Source of the DNA: Alloascoidea hylecoeti | Taxonomy: Eukaryota | Direction: 5' to 3' | NCBI GenBank assembly: GCA_001600815.1 | Contig: BCKZ01000010.1 | Span: 743,506 to 798,825, forward strand | Length of the DNA: 55,320 bases | Notes under the pieces: model-generated | The model's input: the letters and a program-made list of their open reading frames with translations, nothing else | Told to the model about the DNA's origin: nothing | The model's database searches: none | Program-made: the position numbers and the translations under genes | Shown here: positions 22,288 through 55,320 of the stretch, one piece after another | How positions within the stretch are numbered: the stretch's first letter is position 1 | Layout: the number at the start of each line of letters is the position of its first letter

Positions 22288-24132
22288 TTAACGGGTATTT
22301 AAAGCTTTAGTAACAACACGCTTAAGACTTAATTCAGCCTTTCTTAAATCGTCAGCAGAAGCATCTTCAATTTCTAAAGCAGCTAAAGCATCAGATAAAG
22401 CAGTTTCAATTCTTGATTGAGCACCTCTCTTTAATCTAGCAGCGTAACCAGGATCTGTGATTGATGATTCAATAGAAGAAACATATGATTCTAATCTTTG
22501 TTTGGCTTCATGTCTCTTAGAGAAAGCATCATCAGCATTCTTGAACTTTTCAGCATCGCCAATCATCTTTTCAATTTCTTGAGAAGATAATCTACCAACA
22601 GAGTTAGAAATGGTAATGTTAGAGGTTTTACCGGTAGATTTTTCAAGAGCTGTAACTTTAAGGATACCATTAGCATCAACTTCAAAAATGGCTTCTAAAA
22701 CTGGTTCACCAGCTCTCATTGGTGGGATTCCCTTTAAGTCAAATTCACCGAGTAAAGTATTCTCAGCACAGTTAACACGTTCACCTTGGTAAACTGGGAA
22801 CTGAACAGTGGTCTGATGGTCACCAACAGTTGTGAAAGTTCTTCTCTTAATAGTTGGAACTGTTGTGTTTCTTGGAATAACTGGAGCAAAGATATTACCT
22901 TCCATGGCAACACCGAGAGAAAGAGGAACAACATCCAAAAGTAAAAGATCCTTAGTCTCATCACCAGTGGCTTGATTGGTCAAAATAGCACCTTGAACAG
23001 CAGCACCATAGGCAACAGCTTCATCAGGGTTAATAGATTTTTCCAAAGCTTTTCCATCAAAAAAGTCAGATAAAAGTTTTTGGACTTTTGGAATACGGGT
23101 GGAACCACCAACAAGGACAACCTCATCAACACCAGATTTGCTGATCTTAGCATCCTTCAAGACACGTTCAACAGGTTCCAAAGTGCTCTTGAATAAAGCA
23201 GCATTAATGTCTTCGAAACGAGCACGGGTAATGTTGGCGCTGAAATCTTCACCACTGGCTAAAGAATCAACTTCAACAGTGGTTTGGGTAACAGAGGATA
23301 AAGTTCTCTTGGCACGTTCACAAGCAGTTCTCAATCTTCTTAAAGCACGAGAATCAGAAGAAATATCGACGCCAGACTTCTTCTTGAAATCTTTTTGAAA
23401 GAAATCTAATAAGTTTGTGTCGAAATCTTGACCACCCAAATGGGTATCACCAGCAGTAGCCTTGACGGTGAAAACACCACCAGCAATGTGAAGTAAAGAA
23501 ACATCAAAAGTACCACCACCTAAATCAAAAATAAGAACATGTTTCTCTTTCTTACCATCTTTACCAGCACCAAGACCGTAGGCAATGGCAGCAGCAGTAG
23601 GTTCATTAATAATACGCAAAACGTTTAAACCAGAAATTGCACCAGCATCTTTAGTAGCCTGTCTTTGGGCATCATTGAAATAAGCTGGAACGGTGACAAC
23701 AGCTTTTTCAACCTTTTTACCAATCTTGGCTTCAGCAATTTCCTTCATTTTAGTCAAAACCATGGAGGAGATTTCCTGTGGAGAAAAAGTTTTAGTTTCC
23801 TTTAAGTACTCAACTTCAATGAGTGGAGATCCTTCTGAATCAATGACTTTAAAAGGCCATGTCTTGATATCTTTTTGAACGGAACTGTCATCAAAACGAC
23901 GACCAATTAAACGTTTGGCATCAAAAACGGTGTTCTTTGGGTTAAGAGCAGCTTGATTCTTAGCAGCATCACCAATCAATCTTTCCTCTTCAGTGAAAGC
24001 GACGAAAGAGGGAGTAACACGGTTACCTTGCTCATTTGCAATGATCTCAACGGCACTGTCATAAGTAGCAACACATGAGTAGGTAGTACCTAAATCGATA
24101 CCGATAGCACCTGGAAAAACACCTTCAGCCAT
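22288..24132 (-). CDS. SSB1: Ribosome-associated Hsp70 (Ssb)
   Basis: [22 protein letters not shown] start; C-terminus [18 protein letters not shown] with no EEVD; strongly biased codons. Confidence 0.98.
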
Positions 24133-30572: not shown

Positions 30573-34216
<3,644 letters not shown>

Positions 34217-49439: not shown

Positions 49440-50180
49440 ATATCAAAGACCACCTAAAAACAATTCTGTAAAAACACGAATCTAGAATATTTTTGGCATA
49501 TAAATGGTGTCATACAAATGAGAAGAATCCAATTAATAGAGTGTTATCGTATGATCATAGTGGTCTTATGACATTTTGGGATGGTTTTGTATCTTGTGAA
49601 GAATGTTCGGATCCGGACCTAGAAATGAATAAGTTCTAGAACAGTCACACTAAGCCTTTAAATCAAAACGTATTTATATCATTCGGAAAGGCTTGGTATG
49701 TGAGTCTCTTTATTGGCATGAAATTTGAAAAGGTGGTCGTGCTTCACTGGACAGAGTGGTTGGGAATCCTAATTGCAGAAATGAAGGAGCCACCACGCTC
49801 CTACATATAATGTTTGTAAGAGGCCTTCGATTAGATTTACAAGCGCGTCAAATTCAAGCTGGATAACAAGGCTATCAATAAAGCTAAAATCACGATAAAT
49901 TGGCTTTGTAGAAATAAGATACAGGTGTTAGAGTGGTCACCGTTTTCACCGAATCTGAATCCAATGAAGCACAATTGGAATCTACTCATAAAAGTTTATT
50001 ACATGGCAGGAATTGCAATTATGAGCCTTACATATACTACTAAGGTGAAGAAATACCTAATTATAGTGTCACTTCTAACATACTGTGACCTAGTGGATCA
50101 GTATATCACTGATAATATTATTGACTCTATATTTCATAGGGTGCACTGTGCAGCCGTCTATAACGAGGGCCAAGAGTAAA
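49440..50180 (+). pseudogene. Decayed Tc1/mariner DD34E transposase (copy 1)
   Basis: FKLDNKAINKAKITINWL..NKIQVLEWSPFSPNLNPMKHNW: exactly 34 residues between D (49862) and the E position (mutated to K, 49967). Upstream W.EI*KGGR..DRVVGNP, downstream IIDSI. Stops and frameshifts present. The 5' boundary is approximate. Confidence 0.88.
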
Positions 50181-50259
50181 TACCCAATCTATGAGGTCCC
50201 AGTAATAAAAATTAAATTTGTAAATTAACTGCACTTAAATTAAAAAAGGTGATTCAAAA

Positions 50260-50670
50260 CCTAGGTATTGCGTCCCCCTTACAACACACGGAGGGCTCAT
50301 CATTGCAATTCCTGCCATGTGATGAAGCTTTATAAGGAGAATCTGTATGGGCCCAATTGGGTGCCCGCTCAGAAAGGTGACCACTCTATCTTATTTCCGC
50401 GAATCCAATTAATCATGATTTTAGATTTATTGATAGGTATGCCATCCTTCTTAAATATGAACTTCAAGTATCTCATCGAAGGCCTCTTTCAGAGCTTCTA
50501 TGTAGTACGTACGAACGTGTGCGTTGGTTCCTTCTTCTCTGCTATTAGGATCGCCAAACACTATACAATAAAGCACGGCCTACTTTCCAAATTTCAGCCC
50601 ACTCAATGGGATTCACATAGGCAGACTTCCCTATACTATAAAAGTTTTCTGATTTACAGGTGCTACTTCA
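50260..50670 (-). pseudogene. Decayed Tc1 transposase (copy 2), inverted relative to copy 1
   Basis: Minus strand gives WAEIWKVGR../GDPNSREEG..YIEALKEAFDEI/IFKKDGIPINKSKIMINWIRGNKIEWSPF*. Exact 19-nt and 14-nt matches to copy 1. Confidence 0.85.
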
Positions 50671-51314: not shown

Positions 51315-52040
51315 TGTTAAAGTTAAGTAGGTAAAATATGAATCAGATAAAGGATAGAGAACTAAATCCTCCTCTGGATCCTCGTCTGGATTTAGTTCCC
51401 TTTTATATTAAATTTAAATATCATTATAAGTATATAAGTTTTTGTATAAATATTAAATAATAAATCTCAGTATGTGAGAAGTATATTTCAACATTCTCAC
51501 AACTTTGATACATATAAGAATTTAAAAATAAAACAAAGTAGAATAAAATAAAATAATCTTTAATAAGTAAAATAAATATTTTTTTAATAAAATAGGATAT
51601 TTCCAAAACAAATAGTAAGTTAAATATTCAATTCTTTTAACAACTTTTTAATAAATAAAGCATTTTTCGTGCCACTGCAAAATGATATAAGTTCTGATTC
51701 TGATGTAGAGAGAGTTATTGATGAAATAAGTTTACTTTTCCATGAGACTATATTATTGTTCACTATGGTTAAATATCCTAGATTGCTAGTTCTATCCTTT
51801 GAATCAGCCCATGTTGCATCAATTTAAGTAGTTACTGTAAGTTAGTCATTTAATTTTATGTATTCTGGTCTTTTTTCTTTCATAAAAGTTGACTCTATCA
51901 CTTCAATATCTATAATGCCAATTAATTTTTGGTATTCAGTAATATCAGAGGCTAACAACAGTACTGAATTTTATAAATTGGGGTGTGAGATTCATCAATG
52001 GATAGATGTAGTAATAGTAGTTCTGCATATAACTAATAGT
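51315..52040 (-). mobile_element. Truncated Ty1/copia relic: RT C-terminus and RNase H fragments plus 3' LTR (51315-51493)
   Basis: Minus strand has DITEYQKLIG (about 51917-51946) and IDATWADSKDRTSNLGYL....NIVSWKSK..S.ITLSTSESELIS....KNALFIKKLLKEL (51620-51823). 179-bp LTR TGTTG...TAACA. Confidence 0.88.
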
Positions 52041-52096: not shown

Positions 52097-52265
52097 TGAT
52101 AAAAAAACTTTAACTTTTAATTTGTAAAAAATATGAATAAGATAAAGAATAGAGAAAGAAATCCAGGGGTGGGTTTCTTCTCATTTTATATTACTTTTTA
52201 AATATATAGCTTATATAAAGTAAGATATTATTAATTTGCATATGTTGCTAAATATAGTTCCAACA
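52097..52265 (-). mobile_element. Short copia-type LTR (family A), probably a 3' LTR with its AT-rich 3' UTR at 52266-52429
   Basis: TGTTG...ATCA ends. 38 nt are identical to the copy at 54251-54288 and the two align throughout. TATAAAA present. Confidence 0.85.
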
Positions 52266-52429
52266 TACATATGCAAATTATAAAGTAATTAATAAAAATA
52301 AGTTTTGTTTAATTTTAACTAAAATAAGAACATAATAAGTGTTTTTTGTTTAATAAGAATAAGTAATATAAGTTTGAATAAAAATAAGATTCTTTTAATA
52401 AGATAATTTAAAAATAAGGATTAATAAAA

Positions 52430-52757
52430 TGATAACCTTATTATAATTATTATTCAAGAAGGTTCTGGAAGGTTCCATCACGTAACATTGGTTATTCATG
52501 AGGGTTGTAGACGGTGCTGGAATGTTCTATGACGCATGAGTTATATATATTATATAATTATTAGTATAGAAGAATATTCTGGAATGTTCCATGAGGTCCT
52601 TAGAACCGTCAGGAACATTCTAGGACATTCTGATGGTCATCCATCTCCCCATTATTTGTCTATATAAGGAGAGCAAAATCCCCTTCATTTCTGATTTTGC
52701 TCTTTACCTTTTTATTCTTTATCTTAATATATTCTACACTTATTTCATATCTTATCA
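52430..52757 (+). mobile_element. 5' LTR (family B, 328 bp) of the copia element
   Basis: Inverted termini TGATAA...TTATCA, TATATAA at 52661, gag ATG 77 nt downstream. Confidence 0.75.
52453..52630. promoter_or_regulatory. Cluster of heat-shock elements (inverted nGAAn arrays) in the LTR
   Basis: TTCaaGAAggTTCtgGAAggTTC (52453-52475), GAAtaTTCtgGAAtgTTC (52572-52589), GAAccGTCagGAAcaTTCtaGGAcaTTC (52603-52630). Confidence 0.8.
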
Positions 52758-54243
52758 TTCTTATACCTTACAAATTATTAGATTTCCAATCTTTCCGTCT
52801 TACAATCTACTCAATTCAATTTATTTTTAAACAATGTCAAAATTTTCTTTTGATGATGGTTTCGATATTAAAACAGATATTTTTAAATAAACTCAAACCG
52901 CATTATCCGCCGATTCTTTGGTAAAATTCGATGAAGGTTACTATTTTCCGGTCGTTGAAAGATGGTTAAAGGTTAAACTCAAAACCATTGTTCAATCTGA
53001 TGTGTTCTCTATTGATCGATTTATTACTTGTACCTCTGTGAATTTTTACCCAACTAACTTCTGTCCTATCCTTGAATACTTGCTTAAACTCTGCTTCTCT
53101 GATGAAGTCTTAAGGGAATATGAGGATTAGTATAATGGTATTGAACTATTCTTTGCTTTAAAAAAGGAATACAAGGTACTCAATAATGTTACTAGAGTCT
53201 TTTGCAAAAGGTTTTTACTGAAACTGCTAAACAGGGTGCTTTAACTAAGAACTTTAATGAAAAGGTTTATGTTATGCTCGAATATTTTCCGCATTTAAAG
53301 AAGTGCATTCCTCTTATTGCTTTCTTCCATCTTTCAAATGTACAAAGAGATCAAGTTCTTCTACGTAAGGATATGGTCAGTGCAACTGAAAGTGATATTG
53401 AATCTTTGGAAGAATCAAAACATACTGAAATCATTGTTTTCGTTAATAAGTTGACAAAGAAAGGAATCATTGCCGAATCTTCAAATATCTTGGACACTAC
53501 TGATGAAGTAAACTATCATGAGAATAACTCCAAGTTCTTGAAAAATGTTAGATGCTATCGTTGCCATAAATTTGGTCACTACATGAATCATTGCCCTTTA
53601 AATAAATTCAAAAAACACCCTAAGAAATATCATGAGGTTCAATACACTGAACTTCAAATTGGTGCTGACGTTTACTACTCCACTAAACTTGAATCCGATG
53701 ATGATGAAGAAGCGAACCTCATTGAGCATGAGGAAGAGGTTTTTCTTGTGTCTGATGTTGAATTCATTATTGATTCGGGTGCTACTTTTCATGTTGTGTC
53801 CGACAAATCTATTCTGGATAATGTTAGTGTGTCTAATACTACCATTAAAGGTGTTGATCGTCATTCTATTTCGAATCTTGAGGGAGGCTTAACTCTCGGT
53901 AACTTGTGTTTATCTAATGTGAAGGTCATGCCTAACACTAATAGAAATATTATATCTGGTAATGTGCTTTCCAAAAAGGGTTATAAAATTGGACTGGACT
54001 CCGACAAGGTTAAAATTTCTAAGAAAGGTACTACTTTCCTTAAGTGTCCGACGTTTGTGGTCTATTACCTCTTCTGATATTAAGAATGAAATCGCTATTA
54101 ACACTGAATCTGTTCCTGTTTCTGATACAATGATTATCGATGAACATATTTCAACTGGTCATGCATCCGCAAAGGTGTTAAGTTCTACTTATCCTGCTTT
54201 AGGTACTGCTTCTACAATTGATAAAACACTCAACAACAGATAA

Positions 54244-54408
54244 TGTTGAGACTATATTTAGCAACATATGCAAATTAATAATATCTTAATTTATATAAGT
54301 TAGATAGTTAAAAAGTAATATAAAAAGAGAAGAAATCCACCTCAGGATTTCTTTCTCCATCTCTTATCTTATTCATATTCTTCACTATTAAAAGTTAAAA
54401 GTTTTTCA
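54244..54408 (+). mobile_element. Family A LTR inserted in the copia pol region
   Basis: Starts TGTTG and is the reverse-complement homologue of 52097-52265. The 3' end is approximate. Confidence 0.85.
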
Positions 54409-54639: not shown

Positions 54640-55320
54640 TTATAGATAGTGATATTGAAATGGAAGAACCTGAAAATTCTGTTGTTTCAAAAGCTTATAT
54701 TGACGAATCAATCTCACCATTACCTGTCACGGATAGAACTATAACAACAACTTCATCAACTTCCAAAGACTCTGCTAATGACACTATTATGAGAGATGCT
54801 GTTTCTTCAACTCCTTTAAAGAATGTCACCCACAATATTAACAAACAATTTATGAAGGAAATGCAAAAGAAAGATGANTACATTGTGGAATCTCCCAAAT
54901 ATACTGTTAGTGTAGAAATATTAAGTGATGATGAAGATAACTTTGAATCCATTTCTACTTATCCAAAATTAAATGAAGGACCCACAATTAAGGCAATTGA
55001 GAACACAGGTGAGTATGAGAATTTTATGGATGATAGTTTGGCTAATCTGGAACAACAACTGGTACCTNGGAACAGAGAATGGACACTCAATACAAATCGT
55101 CAAAGTCCTGATCCACTCAACATGTTAGACAAGTCGTTATCTCATTATTTTGCAACCGAAACCTCTGATGAATCTATGCTTTTAATGGCCAGCAACAGTG
55201 AAGTTATTCCTAAAACCTATTCAGATGTTCTCAAATCCACCCTCAAAGATGAATGACTTGCAGCAATGAATAATGAATTTAAAAGTCTAGAATCAAATAA
55301 TGTTATGGATCTTGTTTCAA

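Follow-up and report, generated by a model that had tools for sequence, protein, structure and literature searches.

Can the LTR of a yeast retrotransposon place its transcription under the control of the heat-shock response of the host? This question is raised by the LTR of a decayed Ty1/copia-type element, here called element B, which is found in the window, i.e. the whole 55,320-nt stretch of DNA that was analysed. The original prediction described several heat-shock elements (HSEs) upstream of the TATA box of this LTR and proposed a heat-activated element. Here, we describe the arrangement of these sites, their relation to chance expectation and to the state of the element, and the proteins that might read them.

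Heat has been connected with the activity of various LTR elements. In the fungus Magnaporthe, the element MAGGY is reportedly activated by heat shock. In Arabidopsis, the LTR of ONSEN (ATCOPIA78) contains nTTCnnGAAn elements which bind HSFA2 and are required for heat activation (PMC3907296). LTR families of the Ty3/Mdg4 type in Macrostomum lignano are described as having acquired HSEs independently, and these HSEs are necessary for heat sensitivity (PMC12801592). The Cryptococcus elements Tcn12 and TCN3 mobilise at 37 deg C and have putative HSEs in their LTRs (PMC9942834, PMC12810828), and in C. albicans the RNA and extrachromosomal DNA of the copia elements Tca2 and Tca4 are more abundant at 37 deg C than at 27 deg C (PMC4139406). 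Host-machinery activation of this sort "remains undescribed in fungi" according to a paper from 2026 (PMC12810828).

The motif of Hsf1 in C. albicans and S. cerevisiae consists of three inverted nGAAn units (PMC4894976, PMC11774045). Budding-yeast Hsf1 is a promoter-resident trimer which is found on strong HSEs even in unstressed cells (PMC11774045). In C. albicans, no ChIP signal is seen at thousands of promoters that have the Hsf1 consensus, and access is gated by nucleosomes (PMC4894976).

Anatomy of the family B LTR

The LTR of element B is bounded by TG and CA and has a short inverted repeat at its termini, as in Ty1/copia LTRs (Table 1). Its initial assignment to this type is supported, and more precisely as a 5' LTR, by the ends TGATAA...TTATCA and by a TATA box and a gag ATG, which start at 52661 and 52834, respectively. 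The boundaries and the HSE content both rest on one copy, as a repeat search and sensitive blastn gave no second B LTR copy in the window; the element extends past the window at its 3' end. A candidate copy at 51442-51571 reached 66% over 137 nt but consists of T-rich leader-like sequence and was discounted. The 3' boundary is slightly uncertain because a 9-nt tandem repeat runs across it. Visual inspection of the bases after 52757 revealed neither a TGG-type primer-binding site nor an obvious half-tRNA sequence, and no tRNA genes were detected in the window by ARAGORN or Rfam. The hairpin just past the TATA box is predicted to fold at -15 kcal/mol (z -4.66), none of 200 shuffles folds as well, and it probably stands at the start of R.

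Table 1. Coordinates of the features discussed in the text, given as positions in the window.
Feature	Position	Strand	Description
Family B 5' LTR	52430-52757	+	328 nt; 6-nt terminal inverted repeat TGATAA...TTATCA
HSE1	52453-52475		five perfect contiguous inverted nGAAn units, TTCAAGAAGGTTCTGGAAGGTTC; 186-208 nt upstream of TATA box
Module 2 HSE	52515-52527		three units, the first being TGC, 8/9 bases; GGAATG Tec1-type site at 52519
HSE2	52572-52589		four perfect units, GAATATTCTGGAATGTTC; GGAATG Tec1-type site at 52581
HSE3	52603-52630		six in-phase units, two mismatched (GTC, GGA); inverted module copy; CATTCT sites 52616, 52626
U3 internal direct repeat	52439-52483 vs 52553-52597	+	78%; AT-rich stretch and HSE module
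TATA box TATATAA	52661-52667	+	direct reading
Hairpin just past TATA box	52670-52703	+	11-bp stem, 12-nt loop
9-nt tandem repeat	52745-52764		at the 3' end of the B LTR
Gag-protease, decayed	52834-54077	+	ATG 52834; stops 52888, 53128; frameshift near 53199
Integrase start	53923-54242	+	third frame; H..GH..S motif by eye; ends at 54243
Open frame with copia-type reverse transcriptase start	54640-55320	+	by eye
Family A LTR	54243-54408	+	about 166 nt; interrupts element B, cutting off its integrase
Family A LTR, inverted copy	52101-52266	-	88% over 165 nt to the + copy
A2 LTR	51315-51503	-	third LTR; first bases hold GAATGTTG core resembling the B module
Hsp70 gene, SSB1 type (ribosome-associated)	22288-24132	-	sole Hsp70 in the window

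Heat-shock elements in U3

In total, 18 HSE units are arranged in four sites of the B LTR, and 51 of their 54 triplet bases match. The arrays contain at least three contiguous, alternately inverted nGAAn units, which is the definition of an HSE. They are located in U3, at the distance from the TATA box that is usual for yeast activators. Direct reading and a scan of the window both recovered the perfect five-unit and four-unit HSEs as well as the six-unit in-phase array with two mismatches, each at the position originally proposed (HSE1, HSE2 and HSE3 in Table 1). The remaining site had been given as two units at 52520-52527. Its GAAnnTTC stands, and the number of units has to be raised, since TGC at 52515-52517 lies in phase before it and makes it a three-unit site with 8/9 bases. 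The distance from the TATA box, given before as within about 180 nt, is likewise to be corrected. With TATATAA located at 52661-52667 the arrays span 31-208 nt upstream, and it is the cluster itself that has a length of 178 nt. The placement is that of promoter HSEs, with the gag ATG downstream of the TATA box.

The cluster is built from four copies of one module of about 22 nt, three direct and one inverted, which can be anchored on a GGAAkGTTC core. The direct cores are located at 52467, 52519 and 52581, and on the minus strand the inverted copy has its cores at 52621 and 52631. Every module shows the core TTCnnGAAnnTTC followed by a (C/T)ATGAsG tail. In two of the copies an in-phase extension leads to five and four perfect units, and the GAA/TTC phasing runs past the module core into units without any other motif reading. 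The route by which the module was amplified is visible in the direct repeat inside U3 (78%) and in an inverted self-match across 52571-52631 (79%). Such a layout of amplified modules is typical of LTR enhancers.

U3 measures about 231 nt to the TATA box in family B versus about 48 nt in family A, which leaves some 180 nt extra. This difference in length is essentially the HSE cluster. The LTR also contains a single CCCCT motif, at 52680 and past the TATA box, and the module tails include two TGACG half-sites; these motifs offer no competitor to the reading as HSEs. No AP-1/Gcn4, Rap1 or Mcm1 sites were found in the motif scan of the B LTR.

Arrays compared with chance expectation

The whole window was scanned for alternating GAA/TTC triplets at 5-nt spacing. 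This gave 55 maximal arrays of at least two perfect units, just two of which reach three units or more, both in the B LTR. Three-unit windows were observed five times compared with a mean of 1.2 in 100 dinucleotide-preserving shuffles of the window, and two of these shuffles reached five. For four-unit windows the numbers were three observed against a mean of 0.02, and none of the 100 shuffles reached three. When the 328-nt LTR itself was shuffled 3000 times, no shuffle matched the observed counts for two, three, four or five units. With one mismatch allowed (at least 8/9 bases), 10 of the 39 three-unit windows fall into the 178-nt cluster, while the LTR makes up 0.6% of the sequence. The neighbouring LTRs contain no three-unit window at this threshold.

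A five-unit window as such can arise by chance, and it did so in one of the 100 window shuffles. An origin of the whole set as an accident or low-complexity artefact is nonetheless hardly conceivable in view of the shuffles, of the bunching of four arrays within 178 nt at a promoter position, and of the finding that TRF detects no simple repeat across the arrays. The shuffles of window and LTR support the view that the arrays are non-random.

Gag-pol body of element B and its decay

Gag CCHC, a copia-type beta-barrel domain and a D-S-G protease together mark a Ty1/copia element, and all three are present in element B. In detail, the open reading frame 53196-54077 contains a CCHC knuckle and the DSG protease motif and matches Pol_BBD in Pfam (E 1.2e-6). 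Its neighbours in the Atlas belong to copia gag / Pol_BBD clusters, the top ranks scoring 0.90-0.92, and bear Pol_BBD, zf-CCHC and Retrotran_gag_2. A HMMER scan with the gag-protease gave 156 matches at E <=0.001, six at <=1e-10 and one at <=1e-30, and there were no relatives among the 'Longer' proteins. The best full-length relative (34% identical) is P0122, a full-length copia-type polyprotein with the Pfam domains RVT_2, Pol_BBD and SH3_retrovirus. Used as a query, P0122 retrieved 11 proteins including itself, and the four named ones are plant proteins of 26-37% identity.

The description of gag-pol as decayed proved correct: the element shows two in-frame stops, two frameshifts and a truncation at 54243 by a family A LTR. 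In tblastn, P0122 and P0123 are colinear through the gag lesions, with both stops inside the colinear match. P0122 aligns from its residue 5 at 52849 and again across the CCHC-protease part at 53478-54023, and P0123 aligns on either side of the frameshift near 53199. The second frameshift lies between protease and integrase. An order of protease, integrase and reverse transcriptase would follow from the putative starts of the latter two, which were recognised by eye only, and the reverse transcriptase-like frame may belong to element B or to another element. The integrase-like fragment 53923-54242 was silent in Pfam and tblastn, and the reverse transcriptase-like frame 54640-55320 gave no match in either of them. 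A second family B gag-protease, P0121, is known as a protein alone and shows 74% identity over 191 residues. It is also broken, because its DSG motif is deleted.

The survival of intact HSEs in an element with a decayed gag-pol had been taken as an argument for a promoter that may still fire. We consider this argument weak. The few lesions fit, as a rough estimate, a divergence of just a few per cent; at this level 27 specified bases can survive by chance, and mismatches are indeed present in three other units. The intact HSEs in this decayed copy are therefore no proof of selection.

Neighbouring LTRs and the wider window

The 3' half of the B LTR aligns with three A-type LTRs, namely A(+), A(-) and A2(-). 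Common to all of them is the succession of TATA box, hairpin and T-rich box, whereas the HSE part is found only in B. The hairpins past the TATA box are located at 52670-52703 (+), 54331-54352 (+), 52152-52182 (-) and 51356-51401 (-). Those of the A type have z values of -2.5 to -2.8, and among the LTR types the stem sequences are unlike and the position is constant. These hairpins may represent a conserved structure of the R region.

The inverted pair of family A LTRs brackets the 5' part of element B. Between the A(-) and the B LTR lies an AT-rich stretch of 163 nt (52267-52429) in which ATAAG (CTTATT on the opposite strand) abounds. On the minus strand of 51315-51841, an RNase H fragment (tblastn, residues 1396-1469 of P0122) is followed by a T-rich stretch and then by A2, and the 163-nt stretch is similar to the one lying there between RNase H and A2. 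It may represent the 3' untranslated end of an A-type element, B having inserted into this tail. Farther upstream, an inverted repeat (49655-50027 and 50294-50660) shows 69% over 385 nt, and the open reading frame 49835-50179 resembles, on visual inspection, the terminal part of a DDE transposase, with no significant Pfam match. The region 49655-50660 is possibly a decayed DNA transposon.

The gene content of the window is yeast-like, including VID27, a YVC1-type channel, an SSB1-type Hsp70, Anp1 and an alcohol acetyltransferase, mostly as uninterrupted open reading frames, which makes a budding yeast a plausible host. The genome around element B is AT-rich. For VID27 the best named relatives are 49-61% identical and come from filamentous ascomycetes and from early-branching yeasts (Trichomonascus, Sugiyamaella, Lipomyces, Yarrowia and Pachysolen). 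At 30573-34216 (+) there are two long glutamine-rich open reading frames with extensive CAA/CAG repeats and a LIM-binding domain in the second. An assembly gap (a run of N) lies inside the first; the whole window contains 237 N, and in the region of the elements isolated ambiguous bases are found near 54879 and 55069. Upstream of the SSB1-type Hsp70 gene there is no HSE at a threshold of at least 8/9 bases, and so the window gives no calibration by host HSEs.

Candidate readers of the arrays

On balance we favour the view that U3 of element B is probably an Hsf1-driven enhancer, for basal as well as heat-induced transcription, within a dead Ty1/copia-type element. Hsf1 trimers would bind to the arrays, upstream of the TATA box by 31-208 nt, and the bound Hsf1 would activate transcription that starts in the LTR and continues across the leader into gag. 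As yeast Hsf1 is promoter-resident under basal and stress conditions, a high basal output of the LTR would be expected, with an added burst under heat or proteotoxic stress. The production of element B genomic RNA would thereby be coupled to the heat-shock response of the host. Hsf1 binding, heat induction and a residual promoter activity of this relic are what we infer from the sequence. A motif need not mean binding, and an LTR amid dead elements could be silenced.

The same module can be read in another way. CATTCY (RGAATG) is the consensus of Tec1, a TEA/ATTS protein that drives Ty1 in S. cerevisiae, and the module might be a Tec1 enhancer, with the HSE phasing arising incidentally or serving as a further input. 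Within 113 nt there are four CATTCY sites (52519, 52581, 52616 and 52626), which overlap HSE units, against a window background of 69 such sites or 1.25 per kb. Half of the eight GAA-to-TTC junctions have the required tg/ca spacer, and the neighbouring A2 LTR opens with a GAATGTTG core. Furthermore, Tec1 control sites are described as regulating filamentation genes (PMC2538907). We still regard this reading as unlikely. The four sites are not independent events, because they belong to copies of one module; CATTCY is present in three of the four modules and absent from module 1 and the whole of the perfect five-unit HSE1, and Tec1 would have no use for the perfect units added on the upstream side of the cores. 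Like element B, Ty1 is a copia element of a yeast; it makes use of a transcription factor of its host, and CATTCY-type sites also occur in B. Ty1 differs in having a Tec1/Ste12 element, whereas the Ste12 site (TGAAACA), and with it a composite element of the Ty1 type, is absent from the B LTR. As to temperature, the mobility of Ty1 is highest at 22 deg C (PMC12810828).

Other proteins with an HSF domain, such as Sfl1, Skn7 or an Mga1-like protein, could also read the arrays, and the LTR would then be governed by morphogenetic or oxidative cues, or be repressed, instead of being induced by heat. Sfl1 of both C. albicans and S. cerevisiae recognises TTCnnGAA and CaSkn7 recognises TCTAGA (PMC11774045), and a near TTCTAG core lies inside HSE3. 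At least three contiguous units are, however, the signature of trimeric Hsf1 (PMC4894976), and perfect arrays of four and five units exceed the needs of dimer-type sites, which makes a reader of this kind quite improbable. A more serious alternative is that the arrays are genuine relics of a once heat-driven family and that the present copy is inert, being silenced or covered by nucleosomes, and gives no heat-induced transcript. The stops and frameshifts, the interruption by another LTR, the presence of at least two other degraded elements flanking B and the likewise broken second family copy P0121 all speak for this, as does the gating of Hsf1 binding by chromatin (PMC4894976). On the other side, the TATA box and nine perfect units are intact and strong HSEs are frequently free of nucleosomes. 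An inert relic is thus a real possibility, to which we assign somewhat less than an even chance, and an Hsf1-driven enhancer remains the reading that we prefer.

Comparison with known heat-responsive elements

If driven by Hsf1, the B LTR would resemble ONSEN in its working, both being Ty1/copia elements with HSEs in the LTR; any relatedness to this element of a plant lineage would be conjecture. The B array is denser, with its 18 units in four sites. ONSEN is silent until heated, whereas the B LTR would be constitutive and boosted by heat, given the promoter residency of yeast Hsf1. The M. lignano families share canonical HSEs in their LTR promoters with B and belong to another superfamily and another kingdom. 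The Cryptococcus elements are likewise fungal LTR elements with putative LTR HSEs, but they come from a basidiomycete. Tcn12 has one imperfect step-type site and TCN3 two putative ones, compared with the perfect four- and five-unit arrays of B. The evidence also differs in kind: heat sensitivity through HSEs was validated by experiment in M. lignano, and mobility, though not binding, is demonstrated in the reports on Cryptococcus, whereas the case of B is a prediction from sequence. Tca2 and Tca4 are like B in being Ty1/copia elements of budding yeasts; the available text of the study mentions no HSE for them (PMC4139406), and a kinship with family B would be hypothetical. The literature that we searched, with subscription journals outside its scope, describes no HSEs in LTRs of budding yeasts, in agreement with the earlier statement that no such dense array was known there.

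Beyond this single locus, a copia lineage in an ascomycete yeast may have captured the heat-shock regulon of its host by amplifying a 22-nt HSE module in U3, in convergence with ONSEN and the Ty3-type elements of flatworms. We put this forward tentatively, at close to even chances. If true, no case would precede it among the budding yeasts, and it would provide a tractable fungal system to show Hsf1-driven transposon activation, and the cluster of about 180 nt would represent a compact and very strong natural heat-inducible activator. The mechanism would be easily dissected with the genetics of yeast Hsf1 and with reporters.

That family B was driven by heat is a prediction from the sequence of a single dead copy, and a well-founded one. 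Should it be Hsf1-driven, LTR elements exploiting the heat-shock response would be extended to a fourth independent lineage, now in yeasts, and a mechanism would be at hand for temperature-dependent copia activity as in Tca2 and Tca4. Heat-responsive promoters could also be spread across a genome by the solo or dead LTRs of a family of this type.
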